Assembly (NCBI GenBank): GCA_020443425.1 | Contig: JAGRIE010000014.1 | Location: 12,119 to 76,118 of the forward strand | Direction of reading: 5' to 3' | Source: Halioglobus sp. | GTDB lineage: Bacteria > Pseudomonadota > Gammaproteobacteria > Pseudomonadales > Halieaceae | DNA length: 64,000 nt | Shown here: one piece after another, positions 11,616 through 60,682 of the stretch | How positions within the stretch are numbered: the stretch's first letter is position 1 | How the letters are laid out: every line of letters begins with the position of its first letter | Notes under the pieces: model-generated | The model's input: only the letters and a program-made list of their open reading frames with translations | Told to the model about the DNA's origin: nothing | Database searches by the model: none | Program-made: the position numbers and the translations under genes

Positions 11616-12452
11616 GTGAATACCTTGATTAAAAAATGCCTGTTCCCCGTCGCCGGATACGGCACCCGGTTCCTGCCCGCGACCAAGAGTATGCCCAAGG
11701 AAATGCTGCCGGTGGTGAACAAGCCACTGGTGCAGTACGGGGTGGAAGAGGCCATCGCCGCAGGTATGACGACCTGCGCCATGGTCACCGGTCGCGGCAA
11801 ACGCGCCATCGCAGATCATTTTGATATCAGCTATGAACTGGAGCACCAGATATCGGGTACCGGCAAGGAGATGGCGCTTGCCAGTATCCGCAATGTGCTG
11901 GACAAGGGTGTGTTCACCACGGTACGCCAGCGCGAGATGAAAGGTCTGGGTCACGCCATCCTGACCGGCGAGGCGCTGATCGGCAATGAACCCTTTGGTG
12001 TCCTGCTGTCGGATGACCTGTGTGTCAATGAAGGGCCCGGTGTGCTGGCGCAGATGGCGGAGTTGTACAACCAGTTCCGCTGTTCGATTGTCGCCATCCA
12101 GGAGGTGCCGTCAGACCAGACCCACAAGTACGGGGTGATAGGCGGCAAGAGCCTGAAAGAGGGGATTTACAGTGTCGAGGAGATGGTTGAGAAGCCGCAG
12201 CCTCAAGATGCGCCCTCCAACCTGGCGATCATCGGGCGCTACATCCTGACCCCTGATATTTTCGACATCATCCGCGAGACGGGCCCCGGAGCCAACGGGG
12301 AGATCCAACTCACCGACGCGCTGCAGACCCAGGCGAGAAAAGGCTGTGTGATTGCCTACAAATTCAAGGGCAGGCGCTTCGATTGCGGCAGTGTGCCCGG
12401 GTTTGTCGAGGCGACAAATTTTGTTTACGAAAATTACTACCAGAAGAATTGA
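11616..12452 (+). CDS. galU: UTP-glucose-1-phosphate uridylyltransferase
   Basis: FPVAGYGTRFLPATKSMPKEMLPVVNKP, KGLGHA, VEKP, RFDCG. Confidence 0.96.
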   Translation: MNTLIKKCLFPVAGYGTRFLPATKSMPKEMLPVVNKPLVQYGVEEAIAAGMTTCAMVTGRGKRAIADHFDISYELEHQISGTGKEMALASIRNVLDKGVFTTVRQREMKGLGHAILTGEALIGNEPFGVLLSDDLCVNEGPGVLAQMAELYNQFRCSIVAIQEVPSDQTHKYGVIGGKSLKEGIYSVEEMVEKPQPQDAPSNLAIIGRYILTPDIFDIIRETGPGANGEIQLTDALQTQARKGCVIAYKFKGRRFDCGSVPGFVEATNFVYENYYQKN

Positions 12453-52374: not shown

Positions 52375-52857
52375 ATGGAGCTTTTTAATACCTTGCAAGC
52401 ATGGCACTGGTTTGTCCTCGCTGTGTTGCTGATAGTGCTCGAAGTGACCACCACCACCGGCTTTGTGCTCGGGATCGCGTTCGCGGCGCTGGCACTGGCG
52501 GGGCTTCTCTGGCTGGTCCCGGCGCTGTCCTGGGACTGGCAGCTACTGGTGTTCGGGGTGCTTTCCGTCGTGATGACGATCGCCTATCGCAGCTATTTCA
52601 AACCGGGTAAGGATGCCCCGGACACCCCGGTGCTGAATGACCGCGCAGCGCAGATGCTCGGCAAGCTGTTTGTACTCGGGGTCGACCTGGATCGGGCCGG
52701 CGCCGATATGATTGGCGATACCCGGTGGACGCTGCGCAGTGCCGAGCGCATCGGGAAAGGTACCCGGGTGCGGGTGGTGGGCGTCGAGGGTATGGTGCTG
52801 GTTGTGGAGGCGGAGTCCTGGACGGGTGTACCCGGCGACAGGGGGGCTAGGTCTTGA
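52375..52857 (+). CDS. ybbJ: NfeD family protein (YbbJ-like)
   Basis: Hydrophobic N-terminus W..LAVLLIVLE; LNDRAAQMLG; C-terminal OB fold GTRVRVVGVEG; follows the SPFH gene. Confidence 0.88.
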   Translation: MELFNTLQAWHWFVLAVLLIVLEVTTTTGFVLGIAFAALALAGLLWLVPALSWDWQLLVFGVLSVVMTIAYRSYFKPGKDAPDTPVLNDRAAQMLGKLFVLGVDLDRAGADMIGDTRWTLRSAERIGKGTRVRVVGVEGMVLVVEAESWTGVPGDRGARS

Positions 52858-53497
52858 CCAGGCTGATCAGTCCCAGCTCCATTGCTTTTACCGTGGCCTC
52901 AGCGCGCGAGTTGACCTGCAGTTTCTGGTACACCGATTTCAGGTAGCCGGCGCCCGTGTGATACGAGATAGACAGCGCGGAGGAGGCCTCGCGGCTGCTG
53001 TAGCCCTTGGAAATGAGCACCAGCATCTGCTCCTCTCTGGGGCTGAGCGAGACGGATTCTTCACTCCGCTCGGGCCGGAATACATGCAGCATCTGTGTCG
53101 CTATCGAGGCGGACAGCGGCGGGCGGCCGGACAGGATGCCTGCGAGATTCTCTGCGAACACCCGCTCTTCCTCGTCCTTCAGGAGATACCCATCAGCGCC
53201 TGCCCGCAGTGCGGGAAACAGGTGGTCGGCGTCATCGAAAATCGTGGTGACCACGCAGGGCGCGGCCGGGTGTCTCAGTTTGACCAGCGGGATCAGGTCG
53301 GTGCCATCGCCATCGGGCAGCCCGAGGTCCACCAGCACCAGGTCCCAGCTGGCGCTCTCGATCTGCGCCCGCGCTGCAGCAAAGGATGTGGCGATGCTGA
53401 TTTCTGTCTGCCCGAAAACGTCGGCAACCCGGGCGCCCAACCAGCCGGCAACGTCGCTGACGTCCTCGATGACCAGTGTGCGCGGTTGTGTTTCCAT
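52847..53497 (-). CDS. NarL/LuxR family response regulator
   Basis: LVIED, LVDLGLPDG (phospho-Asp), GADGYLLK, LSPREEQML HTH, YQKLQVNSRAEA. Confidence 0.94.
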   Translation of the reverse strand: METQPRTLVIEDVSDVAGWLGARVADVFGQTEISIATSFAAARAQIESASWDLVLVDLGLPDGDGTDLIPLVKLRHPAAPCVVTTIFDDADHLFPALRAGADGYLLKDEEERVFAENLAGILSGRPPLSASIATQMLHVFRPERSEESVSLSPREEQMLVLISKGYSSREASSALSISYHTGAGYLKSVYQKLQVNSRAEATVKAMELGLISLVKT

Positions 53498-53617
53498 GTA
53501 TGTCTCACCTTGAAAAATTGGTAGCATTTGCGGTCGGGTGGCTGCATGCTGCCCGCTGGTCCACCCAATGCCCTGCGGTAGCTTAGGGTATTGAGTCGCG
53601 TAGTGGCCAGCAAAACA

Positions 53618-53636
53618 ACCCCCTGAATATGGGGTG
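53618..53636. promoter_or_regulatory. Palindromic site A, putative response-regulator binding site in the RR/HK intergenic region
   Basis: ACCCCCTGAATATGGGGTG; 15/19 identical to the reverse complement of site B. Confidence 0.55.
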
Positions 53637-53653
53637 ACGTGTGAGGGGCTCAA

Positions 53654-55756
53654 TTGTCATCTATCCGCTTGCGATTAACGGTTGCACTGCTGGTGCCTGT
53701 GCTGTTGTTTTTTGGCGGCGTGTTCACTGCGCTGTCGCTGCCCCAGGCCGATGCGCTGTTCCGCGCAGGGCCTGATCAGCTGCTGATCATCTCCGGGCCG
53801 GCCGATCAGGGCCGGGTGCTCTCCGGTTTCACCGTCGACTCGCAGTTCACCATAGGCGCCACGCCCGACCTGGTGATTGAAGAGCCTGATGTGGTGCCGA
53901 CCTACACCGATATGAACGACCTGTTCAGCCGGATCGGCCAGTTGACCGATGCGCTGCTCGCCGGGCACTTGGTGGCGCAGACCGCCACCGGTGAGCTGCT
54001 ACCCGTGCAGTCCGTTACGCGCAGCCCGGGGGATCTTCCCGCGGTCTTCTGGCTGCAGATACTGTGTGCCACAGCAGCTCTCGTCGTCTGTGCCCTTATC
54101 TGGTCGACGGTGAAACCGGCACTGGGAAGCCTCGGCTTCATCCTGTCCGGGATCGGCTTCGCGCTGGCAGCGGCATCGGCCAGCATCTACAGCACCCGCA
54201 GCCTGTTCATCGATGCCGGCCTGTTCAGCTTCCTGTCATCGATCAACTCGATCGGCTGTGTCCTGTTCGGTTCCGGCCTGATCCTGTTCCTGTGGAACTA
54301 CCCGTTGTCGCTGTGGCCGCGGCTGAGTAAATCCATAACGCTGCTCACTTTTGTGGCGTTTGTCGCACTCAGCCTGAGCGAGGTTGTCGACGACATCAGT
54401 ACCTCCCGTTACCTGCCCATGCTTATCATGCTGGTGTTGGCGCTGGCGGGGCTTGTCTGCCAGTGGTTCAACACCAGTAACAGTGCCGCAGAGCGCCTGA
54501 TTGTGCGCTGGATTACCATTTCAGTGCTGCTGGGCACCTCGATTTTCATGTTGCTGGTGGCGCTTCCGATTATCCTAGGGTTTGCCGAACCGGCCCCACA
54601 GAGCCTGACAATCGCGACGTTCCTGCTGATGTACCTCAGCATGATGCTGGCAGTGGTGCGCTATCGCCTGTTCGACCTGGAGCGCTGGTATTTCGCGATC
54701 TGGACATGGATGCTTGGCGGCCTCGCGGTGCTGGTCGCCGATCTGGTGCTGGCATCCCTGTTAACGCTGTCCAGCGCGGCGACGCTGACACTGTCGCTGG
54801 CGCTGGTGGGCTGGATCTATTTCCCGCTGAGGCAGTGGCTGTGGCGACGCGTTTTCCAGCGCGAGGGCGATGGCCTTGCGGCATGGCTGGAGGCCTCGCT
54901 GCCTGTGATGCTGCAGGCTATACAGGGGGGGCAGTCGCCGGAAACGGTGCTGAGACAGGCGGCAGAAGCGGTTTTTTCGCCGCTGGAAATACGGCAGATT
55001 GCGCAGGAGTATCCACAGATAGAGGCGAGCAGGAATGGCGACTGCCTGTATATCCCCCTGCCGGTCGGCGGTGCCCTGCAAGTATTCCACCCCGCGCAGG
55101 GGCGCCGGCTGTTTAGCCAGCGCGATGAGCTGCATGCGCAGCTGATCCTGTCCCTGTACGGATTGATGATGTCCTCCGTTACCGCCCGCAGGGAGGGCGC
55201 GCAGCAGGAGCGCCAGCGCCTGAAGCGCGACCTGCACGATGATCTCGGGGCAAAACTGCTGCGGCTGCTGCACCGTTCCGACCGGGACAACCAGCCGCTG
55301 GTGCGGGAGGCTATCGCCGACCTCAGGAAGCTGCTCGACAGCAAGTCCGCGGAGGAAAACGACACCCTCAAAGCGGTGAATGGCTGGCGCGAGGAGGCGC
55401 AGATACGCTGTGCCGATCATAATGTCGCGCTCAACTGGCAGCAGAGCATTGCGCCGGCACCGATGGATGCAAAATTGTTCGGCAATGTAACCAGCGTGTT
55501 GCGCGAGTCGCTGAGTAACGCGATACGCCACGCCAGTGACAAGGCTGTGGATATCCGGATCGACGGGAGCGAGGACAAACTGGAAATTCTGGTCACCAAT
55601 CGCTTTGCGGGTGGAGGGCCGGGCGCGGGCAACGGGCTGGATAACATCAGGCAGCGCCTGCTCGACTGCGGGGGAGTGTGCGCGATTTCACAGAATAACA
55701 ATCTTTGGCAGGTGGAATTCGCAGTGGGACTGCGGGATACCGTAAAAACCCCCTAA
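53654..55756 (+). CDS. Multi-TM sensor histidine kinase (HisKA_3 type)
   Basis: Periplasmic domain plus many TM helices; H-box RDLHDDLG; N-box ESLSNAIRHA; G2 GNGLDNIRQR; G1 box degenerate. Confidence 0.88.
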   Translation: MSSIRLRLTVALLVPVLLFFGGVFTALSLPQADALFRAGPDQLLIISGPADQGRVLSGFTVDSQFTIGATPDLVIEEPDVVPTYTDMNDLFSRIGQLTDALLAGHLVAQTATGELLPVQSVTRSPGDLPAVFWLQILCATAALVVCALIWSTVKPALGSLGFILSGIGFALAAASASIYSTRSLFIDAGLFSFLSSINSIGCVLFGSGLILFLWNYPLSLWPRLSKSITLLTFVAFVALSLSEVVDDISTSRYLPMLIMLVLALAGLVCQWFNTSNSAAERLIVRWITISVLLGTSIFMLLVALPIILGFAEPAPQSLTIATFLLMYLSMMLAVVRYRLFDLERWYFAIWTWMLGGLAVLVADLVLASLLTLSSAATLTLSLALVGWIYFPLRQWLWRRVFQREGDGLAAWLEASLPVMLQAIQGGQSPETVLRQAAEAVFSPLEIRQIAQEYPQIEASRNGDCLYIPLPVGGALQVFHPAQGRRLFSQRDELHAQLILSLYGLMMSSVTARREGAQQERQRLKRDLHDDLGAKLLRLLHRSDRDNQPLVREAIADLRKLLDSKSAEENDTLKAVNGWREEAQIRCADHNVALNWQQSIAPAPMDAKLFGNVTSVLRESLSNAIRHASDKAVDIRIDGSEDKLEILVTNRFAGGGPGAGNGLDNIRQRLLDCGGVCAISQNNNLWQVEFAVGLRDTVKTP

Positions 55757-55766
55757 TTCAGGGGGT
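55748..55766. promoter_or_regulatory. Palindromic site B upstream of the giant lipoprotein gene
   Basis: ACCCCC-TAATTCA-GGGGGT, overlapping the HK stop codon, 65 nt before the ATG at 55832. Confidence 0.55.
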
Positions 55767-55831
55767 ACTGCCGCTCAGCGCCCCCATCTTAGTATCGCCC
55801 CAAACTATTTATAAAGTTACCGGGGCGATTC

Positions 55832-58800
55832 ATGAAGACTTTCCGAAACGGCGGACACAACGCCATTGTGCGACCACTGGGGCTCACCTTGACGCTGGGC
55901 CTCAGTTTTTTACTGGGAGCTTGCAGCGGTGGCAGCTCCTCCTCCAACGGCAGCGGTGTGGTCAATGAGGTGGTCACGCCGACACCCACTCCCACCACGC
56001 AGACACTCGAAGGCACCGCGGCGGTTGGCGCCGCTATTGTCGACGGCATCGTCACGGCACGCTGTGCCAATGGCAACAGTTTCACCGAGGAGGTGAAGAC
56101 GGATGCCGATGGCAGTTGGTCGGGAACCATCGACAGCGCGGCGCTGCCCTGTGCGCTGCAGGTGTCCGGAGGGACGCCCGCGGTGACACTGCACAGCTAT
56201 GCCGCTGCACCGGGAACGGTGAACATCACGCCGCTGACCGATCTTGTGCTCGCGCTGGCAACGCTGCAAACGCCGCAGGACTGGTTTAATGGCTTCAGCG
56301 GTGACAGCGTCGATATCGGTACCGCCTCCGGCACCCTGTTGGACAAGTTCGCTGGCAACGGCTTTGATATCCCGTCGACAGGAAACCCGTTTACCACGCC
56401 GTTCACCACCAACGGTACCGGCTGGGACGGCCTGCTCGACCAGATCGGGCAGTCTATCGCGGATGACCCGGGCCTGGCCGATCACGCCGCTCTGGTCACT
56501 ATCGTAAAAGACGGCAATCTGGATAACCTGCCCGCCGCCCCCGCGCCTGTGACCTACACCATCAGCGGTACCGTCACCGGTGCCAGTGCCAATGTCGTCT
56601 GGGAGACCATCGTCGGCGGCCAGCTGTTGCACGATGGTGGCAGTGGCAACGGCGATGTCACCTTCAGCCCCAGTGAGGGTATTGCTCAGGGCAGCAGCTG
56701 GCGGGTTGCAATCAATACCGCGCCGGCGGGCCAGTCCTGCGTCGTCAATAACGGCAGCGGTACGCTGTCGGCGAATGTGACGAATGTTGAAATCGTCTGC
56801 ACCGAAGCTGCGAGTTTCAGCCTGTCCGGCACTATCAGCGGCGCCTCCGGCGCAGTCGGTTGGACGGCGCGCAGGAGTGGCGCCAACTACAATACCGGCA
56901 GTGACAGCAACGGGGCAGTCACGTTCACCCTGCCTGCCGGTATGGTTGAGAACAGCAACTGGCGCGTTCTCGTGACCAGCGCGCCCGCCGGCCAGACCTG
57001 CAGCGTCAGCAATGGCAGCGGCACGCTGAAAGCCGATGTTACCAACATCGCGATCCAGTGCAGCGATGAGGTGATAGTGCCGAATACGTACACGATTTCC
57101 GGTTCCATCACCGGTGCCTCCGGCCTTGTGCAGTGGCAGACCTTCAACGGCATGAATTTCCATCACGACGGCAGCAATAACAACGGCAGTGTCGCCTTTA
57201 CCACGGCTGCCGGTATGGAGGAGGGCAGCAGCTGGCGTGTCCAGGTGTCGGCAGCGCCGACCGGACAGAGCTGTGCGGTCAGCAACGGCAGCGGCACGCT
57301 GGCGGCGAACGTCAGCAATGTACTGATCAGCTGCAGCGACACCAATGTTGTCCCGGGCGATGCGATCTATGATTTCTCGTCGCTGAACCTGAAGCCGACC
57401 GTTCCCGGCATGACCCCAATCGCGCCCAGCGTCAACCCGGTCGATCCCTCACTGGATATCGCGGCGCTCTACGCCGCACTGGGAGAGCGTGAGAAGGCGC
57501 GGGTTTTTGCCCCGGCCCCCGACAACCTGCAGGTGGAGATCGACAGCTACCAGCGGGAGTACTACCTCACCCAATCTGTGTCGGCCTTGGAGTGGACGCG
57601 GCGCCTGTCGATTGACGCCGGTGCCGATGGCGAGACCAACACCGCTGACGATATCATCACCGCCTACACCGTCTATCCGGATGGCGTGCAGGGCGTGGCC
57701 TACTCCTTTACCCACCCTGGCCCGGATGCTGTCTGGTTCACCGAGGATGACGTTCCTGGCGTCCATCTCAGCGGTCGCAAAGTCTACTTCCCGGACGGTG
57801 TGGTGCTTGAGTACGAGGATGCCAGCGAGGGCGTTATCCTGGTGGTGCCCTTCCTGGATACCGGAGCCGACGGCAAGCTGTTCACGGCAGATGATGTGGT
57901 GAATTTCAGTGTCGGCTACCAGATTGCCATTCTCGATGGCGAGGGCAACCGCGGCCAGATCGTGACCTACGACGCCTACGGAGCGGACAAGCAGTGGTTC
58001 ACCGCGGATGATGTGGTCGACAACTATGTGATGGCGACAAGTGCGCTGTCGGGGCGGCAGCTGATCAGCGTGGTGTACAACAGTCCCGGTTCCGATGGCA
58101 GCTGGTTCACGGCGGACGACGTGGTAAAACAGCACACCCAGATTCAGCTGGGCAGTGACTACCTGCCGCGTTACAGCGCCGTGTACGATTCACCCAGCGG
58201 TGACAGCACCTGGTTCACCGCTGACGATCGCGTGCTCGCGTGGACTTACTACGGCTACGATGGCAAGGGTAATGCCGTACTGGTGGCCACGCATACCAAC
58301 AAGGGCAGTGACGGCGTCTGGTTTACGGCGGACGATACCGCAAGCGGACTTGTCAGCCTCAAGGATGCCAACGGGCGGTCCATCGTCGAGGCGATTATCA
58401 GCGGCTCCGGTGCGATGGGTCCCGACGGCATCTGGTTGTCCGGCGATGAAACCCTGTACGGCTACGCGTATACCGAGTTCGACGCTAACGGCAACAAGAC
58501 ACTCAACGCGCAGATCCAGAGCAAGGGCGCCGACGGCAAGTGGTTTACATCCGATGACCTGCCGACAGCGAGTTACAACTACTGGACGCGCAACTTCGAC
58601 AGCCAGGGTCGTATGACACAGCAGGTGTATTACAACCCCGCGCTGGCGCCGGCCAGCCCGGCGTTCAGCGAGGCGCAAATCGAGCGGTACACTGTGTACA
58701 ACCCCGACCTCGACATCTCTGTGTCGGTATACCGGGATCTCTATGGTTCGAGTTTTGGCAATGACGGCAAGCCCTTCACGGCCGATGATTTCATAGGCTG

Positions 58801-60682
58801 GCCCTATGTCATCACCACCGACTCGGGCAGCCTGCAGTACAACCAACCCGGCCCTGACGCCATCTGGTTCACCGATGACGATGTCAGGAGTGGCTCGATC
58901 GTGCAGCAGTTTGAGGGTAACCGCAAAACGCTGGAGCAGTATCTCGACGCCAACGGCGATGTGGTTTCCTATTCGGAGGTCTCGGAGCTGACACCCACCA
59001 GCTACCGCACGGACAGCTACCAGGTCGATGAGACGGGTTCGCCAGTGCTCACCGGCTACAATATCGTCGAGGAAGACGGCAATGGTTACCCGCGCTGGAC
59101 AACCTGGTACACGGTGGAGGATGTGATCACCAACGTGGGCTACACCGAGTACGATAGCCGCGGCAATATCACTCGCCAGAGTTCTGCCTACTCGCCGGGC
59201 AATGACGGTATCTGGGCAACAGCTGATGACTTCGGCTACTACGCGCTGCAGTTTTTCAACAGCGATAACGAACTGGTGTCGGATGCCACGGAATATCCCG
59301 GTGCGGACCGTGTCTGGGGTACGCTTGACGATTACGTCGGCCCCAGCCGGATTCTGCAGCTCGAATACGATTTCGACCAGCTGCAGGATAACGCCGGTTA
59401 TGTCGCGCGCAGCTGTGACGACCTGATGATTGTATCGAGCGGGTCGATCAATGTGCTGGTGCGCGACCAGGACGGTGAGCCACTGGCGGGCGTCATCGCG
59501 CAGCTGAACAGCCAGGGCAGTACGGTCACCACGGATGCCAGCGGCACGGCGAGCTTCAGCGGCCTCAGTGGCGCACAGGATGTTCACCTGTTCAAGGATG
59601 GCTACAACTGGGAGAGCTTCTACTGTGTGGCGCCGGGCAGCGATGTCACCGTGCAGGGCCGCCTGGCCAGCCGCAACCAGCCGGCGTTGGATTCCAAGGT
59701 GAACTTCCAGGCAACACCCGGCAACTATTACTACACGCTGCGCCTGCTGGATGACGAGGGTTACCCTGTTTCCAGCCGCTCACAATCCTCCAGCAGCGGT
59801 GCCGAGTACGGCCAGACCTACGGTTCCATCTACTTCGGCCTGCCCGCCGACTCGGAAGTCACCGGCGAGCTGTGGGCGTTACAGGTTGACCGCTACGGCG
59901 TGCTGCTCAGTGCCCAGTCGCTCGGCCAGCAGACACACACCACCATAGCCAGTAACCTGTATTCGGATTACCAGCCGATAGAGCTTGCGTTCACGGAGTC
60001 CCAGCCCATCGCGGTGGCTGCACGCGGAACGCTGGCGGCCCCGGGTGGTCAGTTCGCGACTATGGCTGTCTCACTGGGAGGCCTGTATGACCTGCCGTTC
60101 CGCTATGACGCCTCACTGGGCGGTACGTACGCGGCAGTGCCTGATGTGACGGATGTCGAACTGCCGCTAAGGGCACAACCGACAGCGTTGAAAGCCACCG
60201 GCGATAACTGGGAGGCCTGGTACCCGGGCGACTATCCAGAACTGGGAGAGGGTGTATTTGTCGCCTCTGTCATCACCGGCTTCCAGTACGAGCCGCTGGT
60301 GCAGACACAGTCTGCCCCGGGTGACCAGCCGACGATACAGTGGACGCCGGTTCGCCAGATGAAAGAGGATGCCTTCGCCACAGTGACCTCTCTGGAGTTG
60401 CGCAGCGCGGTAGGTGGCCAGGGCTATCAATCGCACTGGACGCTGCACCTGCCCGCCGGTGACAGCAGTGTACAACTGCCCCGTCTGCCGGCAGGCATCA
60501 GTGATGCCCTGCTCCCGGAGAAGGAGTACAGAATGGTGATACGGTCTCGCGCCATACCGTCACTGGACTACAGCACGGCGGTCGCGACCGAGGATCTGCA
60601 TAAGCTGAGCGCCGGTCTCGCCACCGAGCGACTCTCCACCGGGAACGACTACGACGGCGGCAACCTACTGCAGCGCCAGTAA
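55832..60682 (+). CDS. Giant (1616 aa) surface lipoprotein with Ig-like repeats and GxDGxWFTxDD repeats
   Basis: Lipobox LLGAC31, Ser/Thr/Pro linker, three ~82-aa Cys-paired repeats, 13 acidic motif repeats, C-terminal beta-sandwich domains. Confidence 0.9.
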   Translation: MKTFRNGGHNAIVRPLGLTLTLGLSFLLGACSGGSSSSNGSGVVNEVVTPTPTPTTQTLEGTAAVGAAIVDGIVTARCANGNSFTEEVKTDADGSWSGTIDSAALPCALQVSGGTPAVTLHSYAAAPGTVNITPLTDLVLALATLQTPQDWFNGFSGDSVDIGTASGTLLDKFAGNGFDIPSTGNPFTTPFTTNGTGWDGLLDQIGQSIADDPGLADHAALVTIVKDGNLDNLPAAPAPVTYTISGTVTGASANVVWETIVGGQLLHDGGSGNGDVTFSPSEGIAQGSSWRVAINTAPAGQSCVVNNGSGTLSANVTNVEIVCTEAASFSLSGTISGASGAVGWTARRSGANYNTGSDSNGAVTFTLPAGMVENSNWRVLVTSAPAGQTCSVSNGSGTLKADVTNIAIQCSDEVIVPNTYTISGSITGASGLVQWQTFNGMNFHHDGSNNNGSVAFTTAAGMEEGSSWRVQVSAAPTGQSCAVSNGSGTLAANVSNVLISCSDTNVVPGDAIYDFSSLNLKPTVPGMTPIAPSVNPVDPSLDIAALYAALGEREKARVFAPAPDNLQVEIDSYQREYYLTQSVSALEWTRRLSIDAGADGETNTADDIITAYTVYPDGVQGVAYSFTHPGPDAVWFTEDDVPGVHLSGRKVYFPDGVVLEYEDASEGVILVVPFLDTGADGKLFTADDVVNFSVGYQIAILDGEGNRGQIVTYDAYGADKQWFTADDVVDNYVMATSALSGRQLISVVYNSPGSDGSWFTADDVVKQHTQIQLGSDYLPRYSAVYDSPSGDSTWFTADDRVLAWTYYGYDGKGNAVLVATHTNKGSDGVWFTADDTASGLVSLKDANGRSIVEAIISGSGAMGPDGIWLSGDETLYGYAYTEFDANGNKTLNAQIQSKGADGKWFTSDDLPTASYNYWTRNFDSQGRMTQQVYYNPALAPASPAFSEAQIERYTVYNPDLDISVSVYRDLYGSSFGNDGKPFTADDFIGWPYVITTDSGSLQYNQPGPDAIWFTDDDVRSGSIVQQFEGNRKTLEQYLDANGDVVSYSEVSELTPTSYRTDSYQVDETGSPVLTGYNIVEEDGNGYPRWTTWYTVEDVITNVGYTEYDSRGNITRQSSAYSPGNDGIWATADDFGYYALQFFNSDNELVSDATEYPGADRVWGTLDDYVGPSRILQLEYDFDQLQDNAGYVARSCDDLMIVSSGSINVLVRDQDGEPLAGVIAQLNSQGSTVTTDASGTASFSGLSGAQDVHLFKDGYNWESFYCVAPGSDVTVQGRLASRNQPALDSKVNFQATPGNYYYTLRLLDDEGYPVSSRSQSSSSGAEYGQTYGSIYFGLPADSEVTGELWALQVDRYGVLLSAQSLGQQTHTTIASNLYSDYQPIELAFTESQPIAVAARGTLAAPGGQFATMAVSLGGLYDLPFRYDASLGGTYAAVPDVTDVELPLRAQPTALKATGDNWEAWYPGDYPELGEGVFVASVITGFQYEPLVQTQSAPGDQPTIQWTPVRQMKEDAFATVTSLELRSAVGGQGYQSHWTLHLPAGDSSVQLPRLPAGISDALLPEKEYRMVIRSRAIPSLDYSTAVATEDLHKLSAGLATERLSTGNDYDGGNLLQRQ
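56555..57334 (+). repeat. Three tandem ~82-aa Ig-like repeats
   Basis: (Y/F)(T/S)(I/L)SG...W...NG.V.F...G.....WRV....AP.GQ.C.V.NGSGTL.A.V.N..I.C at aa 242-323, 329-410 and 420-501. Confidence 0.9.
57620..59332 (+). repeat. Thirteen dispersed GxDGxWFTxDD peptide repeats
   Basis: GADGETNTADD, GPDAVWFTEDD, GADGKLFTADD, GADKQWFTADD, GSDGSWFTADD, SGDSTWFTADD, GSDGVWFTADD, GPDGIWLSGDE, GADGKWFTSDD, GNDGKPFTADD, GPDAIWFTDDD, GNDGIWATADD, GADRVWGTLDD. Confidence 0.9.

Follow-up and report, generated by a model that had tools for sequence, protein, structure and literature searches.

A conserved palindrome as the probable operator of a NarL/LuxR-type two-component system linked to lipoprotein genes in Halioglobus

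Introduction

Which genes does an uncharacterised two-component system of Halioglobus (Halieaceae) control, and does a palindrome that occurs twice at its locus mark them? The locus lies in a stretch of 64,000 nucleotides (nt; positions 12,119 to 76,118 of contig JAGRIE010000014.1, assembly GCA_020443425.1; hereafter the window) from a 4.33-Mb Halioglobus genome (G000 in the locus labels), in which the genes for a response regulator and a sensor histidine kinase are divergent and the kinase gene is followed by one for a giant lipoprotein. One copy of the palindrome (site A) lies between the regulator and kinase genes, and the other (site B) precedes the lipoprotein gene. Our comparative analysis indicates, with a probability that we put at roughly 80%, that the response regulator encoded beside it, of the NarL/LuxR type, uses the motif CCCCC(T)-N5-(A)GGGGG as its operator, through which lipoprotein genes would be activated. 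The features on which the argument turns are as follows (aa, amino acids).

52847-53497, minus strand: response regulator gene, 216 aa, ATG at 53497; Pfam receiver and GerE/LuxR-type helix-turn-helix domains
53618-53636, no strand assigned: site A, ACCCCCTGAATATGGGGTG; core CCCCT-GAATA-TGGGG at 53620-53634
53654 (TTG)-55756, plus strand: sensor histidine kinase gene, 700 aa, stop codon at 55754-55756; assigned from hydropathy and sequence
55748-55766, no strand assigned: site B, ACCCCCTAATTCAGGGGGT; core CCCCCT-AATTC-AGGGGG at 55749-55765
55832-60682, plus strand: giant lipoprotein gene, 1616 aa, lipobox LLGAC

Results

Conservation of the palindrome

Site B overlaps the stop codon of the kinase gene, and the TTG start codon of the same gene follows 18 nt past the end of site A. 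The coordinates of the two sites, the agreement of site A with reverse-complemented site B in 15 of their 19 nucleotides, and the 11-mer common to both, ACCCCCTGAAT, all reported in an earlier sequence-only reading of the window, were reproduced here. Judged on the window alone, the likeness of the sites is not significant, since the 11-mer with at most one mismatch has two matches against 0.9 expected, a count that 20 of 100 shuffles equalled. Seven copies of the 11-mer are present genome-wide, of which the five outside sites A and B lack the palindrome and are unrelated. It is because of the comparative data, not of the window statistics, that the sites are taken to be more than chance.

Within the genus, the window genome was compared with four other Halioglobus genomes that carry an orthologous kinase (70-83% identity). 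Site A is present in all five, in the register C-CCCCY-N5-RGGGG, with its arms kept and its 5-nt spacer varying; the spacer is the fastest-changing part of an otherwise conserved block of 90 base pairs (bp), and the TTG start codon of the kinase gene is likewise conserved in the alignment. Site B (CCCCCT-AAWWC-AGGGGGT) is, in the genomes with the lipoprotein gene, a conserved island between diverged flanks, followed on its 3' side by a stretch of constant length and unrelated sequence and then by the invariant block TTAGTATCGCCCCAAAC...TATAAAGT...GGGGC..ATG. In one genome (G032) the two genes have come apart. Its kinase gene is intact, with no lipoprotein gene behind it, and the palindrome at that place has decayed to CTCTCCCTAAAACAGCGCGTT. 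On another contig, the lipoprotein orthologue has kept both palindrome and promoter block intact ahead of it, next to 90 nt of decayed sequence left from the 3' end of a kinase gene. The palindrome has thus remained intact with the lipoprotein gene and decayed behind the kinase gene, and therefore selection appears to hold it with the lipoprotein gene. The rearrangement left two descendants of the kinase/lipoprotein junction in this genome, at G032:C132 (L061, reverse strand, ~1319-1500) and at L025:9088-9170; the one with the decayed kinase end and the intact operator, promoter and lipoprotein gene is found downstream of a hydrolase-like gene, and in the other the kinase gene is intact while operator and promoter have decayed.

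Beyond the genus, 401 genomes of the order were sampled, 39 of which contained a kinase homologue at E <= 1e-30, and 20 full-length loci from other families, with kinases 32-41% identical, were compared. The divergent order of regulator and kinase genes is found in most of these loci (regulators 49-58% identical), and about 16 of the 20 have a CCCC(C)-N5-7-(G)GGGG palindrome in the 10-100 nt ahead of the kinase start, as does G038. The genome-wide background frequency of such palindromes is 0.058 per kb. Nearly all remaining copies of the palindrome in these loci stand 48-65 nt upstream of lipoprotein genes, with the exception of a few in coding sequence and three sites behind kinase genes. 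In every case the C-run arm comes before the G-run arm, and even at 35% protein identity no pair has been swapped or compensated. The lipoprotein genes concerned are these.

Giant lipoprotein orthologues right after the kinase gene: L037 and L042; L038 and L039 with a degenerate site
Giant lipoprotein gene divergent from the regulator gene: L045 and L046, with two back-to-back sites in the common intergenic region
Shorter lipoproteins of 514-856 aa, which have only the N-terminal module in common with the giant lipoprotein
Lipoprotein family of ~335 aa: L032, L037, L038, L039, L045 and L046

The proposal that the palindrome marks both the two-component locus and the lipoprotein gene is therefore borne out in the five Halioglobus genomes and at homologous loci of other families, and the trio of kinase, regulator and lipoprotein, for which the sequence-only reading had advised a check of whether it recurs with varying cargo, does recur in other genomes and does so with differing cargo. 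One operator has an unusual setting: before a 328-aa lipoprotein gene (L032:11240-11295, in G038) it is enclosed in a near-perfect inverted repeat of ~55 nt, GTTAGTTATAGAAATCTAAG-CCCCCGATTCAGGGGG-TGTTAGATTTCTATAACTAA, far longer than the operators elsewhere.

Promoter geometry

Alignment of the target-side sites on the palindrome gave 18 independent promoters. In 17 of them a TAnnnT starts 21-25 nt past the G-run (mode 22-23), compared with 3.5% of the other C4-N-G4 palindromes in the genome (binomial P about 4e-24), and column counts over the target promoters revealed no -35 consensus in the six bases after the G-run, beyond a T. Because the distance to TAnnnT is fixed and no -35 consensus follows the G-run, the layout is predicted to be that of a class II activator, with the site covering about -36 to -52 and centred near -44. 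Activator-dependent promoters of the LuxR/TraR type and class II promoters of the NarL type have such a layout. The promoter elements assigned in the window are listed here.

55766-55789, plus strand: spacer between G-run and -10 box, at the -35 position; length kept and sequence diverged in a gap-free alignment of five Halioglobus promoters
55790-55795, plus strand: putative regulator-dependent -10 box TAGTAT, 24 nt after the G-run; invariant in Halioglobus
53585-53613, minus strand: candidate promoter of the regulator gene, with -35 TTGCTG (53613-53608), a 17-nt spacer and -10 TACCCT (53590-53585), in a conserved alignment block; assignment uncertain

Transcription of the lipoprotein gene would accordingly be expected to start near 55802. 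The sequence-only reading had put site B in an activator position, about 45 nt upstream of a TATAAA (55810-55815). The activator position itself holds up, as a probable class II site beside the -35 position, but the reference point has to be moved, since TATAAA was rejected as the -10 box in favour of TAGTAT on the cross-family distance and would fall in the leader. No sigma-70 promoter was obtained from a consensus scan, in which sites A and B showed only as minus-strand terminator-like hairpins.

On the regulator side, an alternative -35 element, TTGTTT (53618-53613), abuts the G-run. Since site A scores better toward the regulator gene (23.3 bits) than toward the kinase gene (18.9 bits) with the matrix described below, and in 12 of 16 loci the GGGGG runs straight into a TTG toward the regulator gene, the presence of site A in the regulator's own promoter region suggests positive autoregulation. 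For the kinase gene the same site cannot be an activator site, because it ends so close to the start codon.

Specificity in the genome and a third site

A weight matrix trained solely on 17 sites from other families was run over the whole genome. Site B ranked first (26.2 and 24.3 bits) and site A second, with the next locus at 18.0, and the genome has only three high-scoring loci. Weaker matches on contigs C189, C133, C180, C175, C122 and C110 were discounted, as they fall in coding sequence or have no lipoprotein gene downstream. A palindrome on C180, CCCCCTATCTTGGGGG (G000:C180:743-770; 17 bits), precedes a csrA-like gene (MLILTRRVGESLMIGD...) by ~70 nt; a -10 box at the required distance is missing, and the palindrome is probably unrelated. 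The genome also contains a repeat family unrelated to the operator, the 17-mer CCCCACACACGTGGGGG, of which there are at least four copies (G000:C201:274-595 and C211:142594-142610); three of these share a 320-bp stretch of a single short contig.

A further site, on another contig, emerged when the genome was scanned for the palindrome together with the -10 distance.

G000:C167:186899-186913, other contig: site C, CCCCTGTATTGGGGG then TACCAT, upstream of a 340-aa lipoprotein gene

The product of this gene is orthologous (30-34% identity, E 1e-35 to 1e-46) to the lipoproteins of ~335 aa whose genes neighbour the system in other families; it has no Pfam or PDB match, and its structure model is poor (predicted local distance difference test, pLDDT, 57). 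In four Halioglobus genomes the promoter-proximal half of site C, TTGGGGGTGCTG, and the -10 box are conserved islands, and the distal half is degenerate in two. As the score of site C with the independent matrix is only 17.5, its assignment relies on the combined evidence. The regulon of one very large protein envisaged by the sequence-only reading is thus too narrow, given this third site before an unlinked lipoprotein gene.

The distribution of the genes follows that of the system. The N-terminal module of the giant lipoprotein is found in exactly 5 of the 41 genomes of the genus, the same five that have the orthologous system, and the small lipoprotein is present in four of these five and in none of six tested genomes of the genus without the orthologous system.

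The lipoprotein and its leader

The giant lipoprotein consists of the lipobox, a Thr/Pro-rich linker (TPTPTPTT), a conserved N-terminal module (~residues 55-280) and variable cargo. The module (window 55832-56700) is common to lipoproteins of 514-1616 aa whose C-terminal cargo differs, and those of 514-856 aa carry the same operator in other families (three are in the alignment). A structure model of the module (pLDDT 75) gave as its best Foldseek match the non-haem domain of PgcA (9i0d), a moderate match at E 7.8e-8, with 27% identity over 165 columns and TM-scores of 0.36 and 0.50. PgcA of Geobacter sulfurreducens is lipid-anchored, has a Pro/Thr linker and is exported to the cell surface (PMC11520253). 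Both proteins show a lipobox and a Pro/Thr-rich linker, followed by an N-terminal domain, cofactor-free in PgcA and possibly so in the giant lipoprotein, ahead of the cargo, which in PgcA is made of haem domains, whereas in the giant lipoprotein it is a calcium-loop YD-repeat sheet with immunoglobulin-like domains. The match may be taken as a lead toward surface display of the giant lipoprotein rather than as a demonstrated function.

The leader of the lipoprotein gene holds a further inverted repeat.

55795-55828, plus strand: inverted repeat TCGCCCC...GGGGCGA, a predicted hairpin that encloses TATAAA and whose 3' arm covers the GGGG ribosome-binding site

The 106-nt stretch that includes it folds at -33.4 kcal/mol (z = -3.25). 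Its core, GCCCC/GGGGC, is invariant in the five Halioglobus genomes, and an analogous pair, CCCGGGA...TCCCGGG, is found in L037. Since the predicted transcription start falls at the end of the 5' arm, only transcripts that read through from the kinase gene would form this hairpin.

The regulator and the kinase

The receiver domain of the regulator matches Pfam Response_reg (PF00072) at 2.1e-13, and its C-terminal GerE domain matches PF00196 at 1e-11, above the cut-off. The acceptor aspartate, D57 in LVLVDLGLPDG, aligns with that of VraR, and E11, D12 and K107 are also present; the closest solved structures are VraR (3.9e-18), DevR (2.3e-16) and NarL. Its recognition helix, ISYHTGAGYLKSVYQKL, is unusual, being HTGAGYLK and not of the TVK.H type, and the signature T-[AGV]-[AS]-[GD]-Y is kept across the regulator family and is specific to it. 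The best NCBIfam match is NarL (4.7e-23), at 81.5 bits against a cut-off of 250, and the NCBIfam scores are far under every equivalog cut-off. For this reason, and because the arms of the operator are 5-7 bp apart and not 2, the protein is classified from its sequence as a member of the NarL/FixJ-type family and not as a NarL orthologue.

The kinase begins with a transmembrane span (TM1) and a periplasmic stretch of ~100 aa; it then crosses the membrane ~9 more times before the H-box, in which H528 lies, and the ATPase domain. The H-box (RDLHDDLG), N-box and G-box are visible in the sequence; the Pfam matches are weak, HisKA_3 (E 0.29) and HATPase_c (E 0.011) both staying below cut-off, and kinase homologues carry PF07730 and PF02518. 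Homologues in Halioglobus, Halopseudomonas, Alloalcanivorax and Marinospirillum are named only 'sensor histidine kinase'.

Discussion

How the system may work

Taken together, the data favour a conventional activation mechanism. The multi-span kinase would sense an envelope or periplasmic signal and phosphorylate the regulator at D57, and a regulator dimer would then bind the palindrome, as GerE-type helix-turn-helix regulators bind palindromes of ~16-20 bp as dimers. Placed at about -36 to -52, with the G-run ending at the -35 position, the dimer would act as a class II activator that recruits RNA polymerase. Site B would in this way activate the 1616-aa lipoprotein gene from TAGTAT (55790-55795) and site C the 340-aa lipoprotein gene, and site A, oriented toward the regulator gene and situated within the kinase leader or immediately ahead of it, may provide positive autoregulation. 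Directly observed were the sites and how they are conserved, the constant geometry of the promoters, the uniqueness of the sites genome-wide and the joint occurrence of the genes; which protein binds, in which direction it regulates and where transcription starts we infer from the arrangement of sites and genes.

Several observations weigh against this reading. The sites are assigned to this regulator through co-localisation only, and distant paralogues of the system, with regulators 39-40% identical, lack the motif in two of the four loci checked (L028 and L031); the other two (L029 and L030) have similar palindromes ~200 nt upstream. In L049, L050 and L052 no convincing gene follows the site behind the kinase gene. 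Toward the regulator gene of Halioglobus, the distance from the G-run to the best -10 box, TACCCT, is 28 nt, compared with 22-24 nt at the targets, and a promoter for the kinase gene was looked for and none was found. The genome in which kinase and lipoprotein genes are separated (G032) was binned from a metagenome, and the two contigs concerned could therefore stem from two strains.

Alternative explanations

The regulator might bind these sites and repress, for instance if the unphosphorylated protein occluded the promoter until a signal relieved it. The position of site A, 18 nt before the kinase start, resembles that of a roadblock to kinase transcription, and the sign of regulation is itself deduced; at 17 of 18 target promoters, however, the site ends just upstream of a -35 position without consensus and leaves the -10 box uncovered, and we regard repression as unlikely. 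The palindromes could also be operators of some other DNA-binding protein encoded elsewhere, with the two-component genes merely members of its regulon, a view to which a site defined by sequence alone lends itself. We consider this more improbable still, as the motif tracks the kinase/regulator pair through many families and gene orders, the recognition helix of the regulator is conserved along with the motif, and the loci under study, which were not searched systematically for this, showed no second regulator gene that recurs.

That the palindromes act instead as RNA or DNA hairpins, as a terminator or stabiliser at the kinase end and as a leader hairpin before the kinase gene, would agree with the folding of both sites (site B forms a 7-bp stem at -12.7 kcal/mol), with the T-rich runs that follow both on the minus strand and with the freedom of the spacer, which would be the loop, to vary. 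The T-run after site B is not conserved, however, and there is none on the plus strand; a minus-strand terminator was rejected for the former reason and because no gene on the minus strand lies upstream of either site for it to terminate. Terminators and repetitive extragenic palindromic (REP)-like elements are equally poor models for a motif with no plus-strand T-run and only three high-scoring loci in the genome. A selected stem would also be hard to reconcile with the constant order of C-run and G-run and the lack of compensatory pairs at 35% protein identity, or with site C, which in two genomes keeps only its promoter-proximal half and cannot pair there. Moreover, the sites lie upstream of the -10 box, so that the transcript of the following gene does not include them; where the kinase gene is intact but has lost its lipoprotein neighbour, the copy of site B behind it has decayed; and no Rfam match was found between 53400 and 55900. 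A hairpin function is for these reasons very improbable. Least credible of all, and already refuted by the comparative results, is a chance similarity of two GC-rich palindromes, with which the insignificant 11-mer count within the window would agree, since it would leave unexplained the conservation of the sites, the fixed distance to the -10 box, the top two genome-wide ranks that an independently trained matrix gives them and the fact that the genes occur together.

Relation to known systems

Regulation by the adjacent response regulator has parallels in several known systems. In the LuxR/TraR class II systems (lux box, tra box) a palindrome of ~17-20 bp is bound by a GerE/LuxR-type dimer, centred in the low -40s, next to a weak -35 and a normal -10 element. 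The palindrome and geometry described here are similar, with start sites that are predicted, but the regulator would be a phosphorylation-dependent response regulator and not an autoinducer receptor, and the C-run-N5-7-G-run motif is unrelated in sequence. NarL and NarP of E. coli bind 7-2-7 sites with the heptamer TACYYMT, and Lys188 of NarL contacts bases. The present system shares with them the regulator family and has a kinase that is probably of the HisKA_3 type, and its half-site ACCCCCT resembles the NarL heptamer TACCCCT; on the other hand, the arms of its operator are 5-7 bp apart rather than 2, its regulator has Ala at the position of NarL Lys188, and its locus has no nitrate-related context. 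VraSR/LiaRS and DevRS (DosR), likewise of the NarL type, bind palindromic sites in their own promoter and in a small regulon connected with the cell envelope, and VraR and DevR are the nearest solved structures to this regulator. The system differs from them in a kinase with ~10 spans and a periplasmic stretch, in its motif, in its surface-lipoprotein targets and in having divergent genes instead of an operon.

A wider picture that joins these elements is tentative and, in our estimate, rather doubtful as a whole. The palindrome and its -10 box might form a portable promoter cassette that moves with lipoprotein genes having a PgcA-like module and interchangeable cargo; a regulator subfamily without the NarL-type Lys might read the C/G tracts and control a 'surface display' set; and the leader hairpin (55795-55828) might silence kinase read-through, leaving the ribosome-binding site free only on regulated transcripts.

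Conclusion

A targeted, not exhaustive, literature search found no description of this regulon, which is apparently an undescribed one of marine bacteria with a conventional mechanism. It would give an uncharacterised two-component family a sharp, testable regulon and tie that family to large surface lipoproteins. The operator and the fixed promoter geometry would permit targets to be predicted in any genome that bears the system, and would offer a simple reporter for finding the signal to which the kinase responds.

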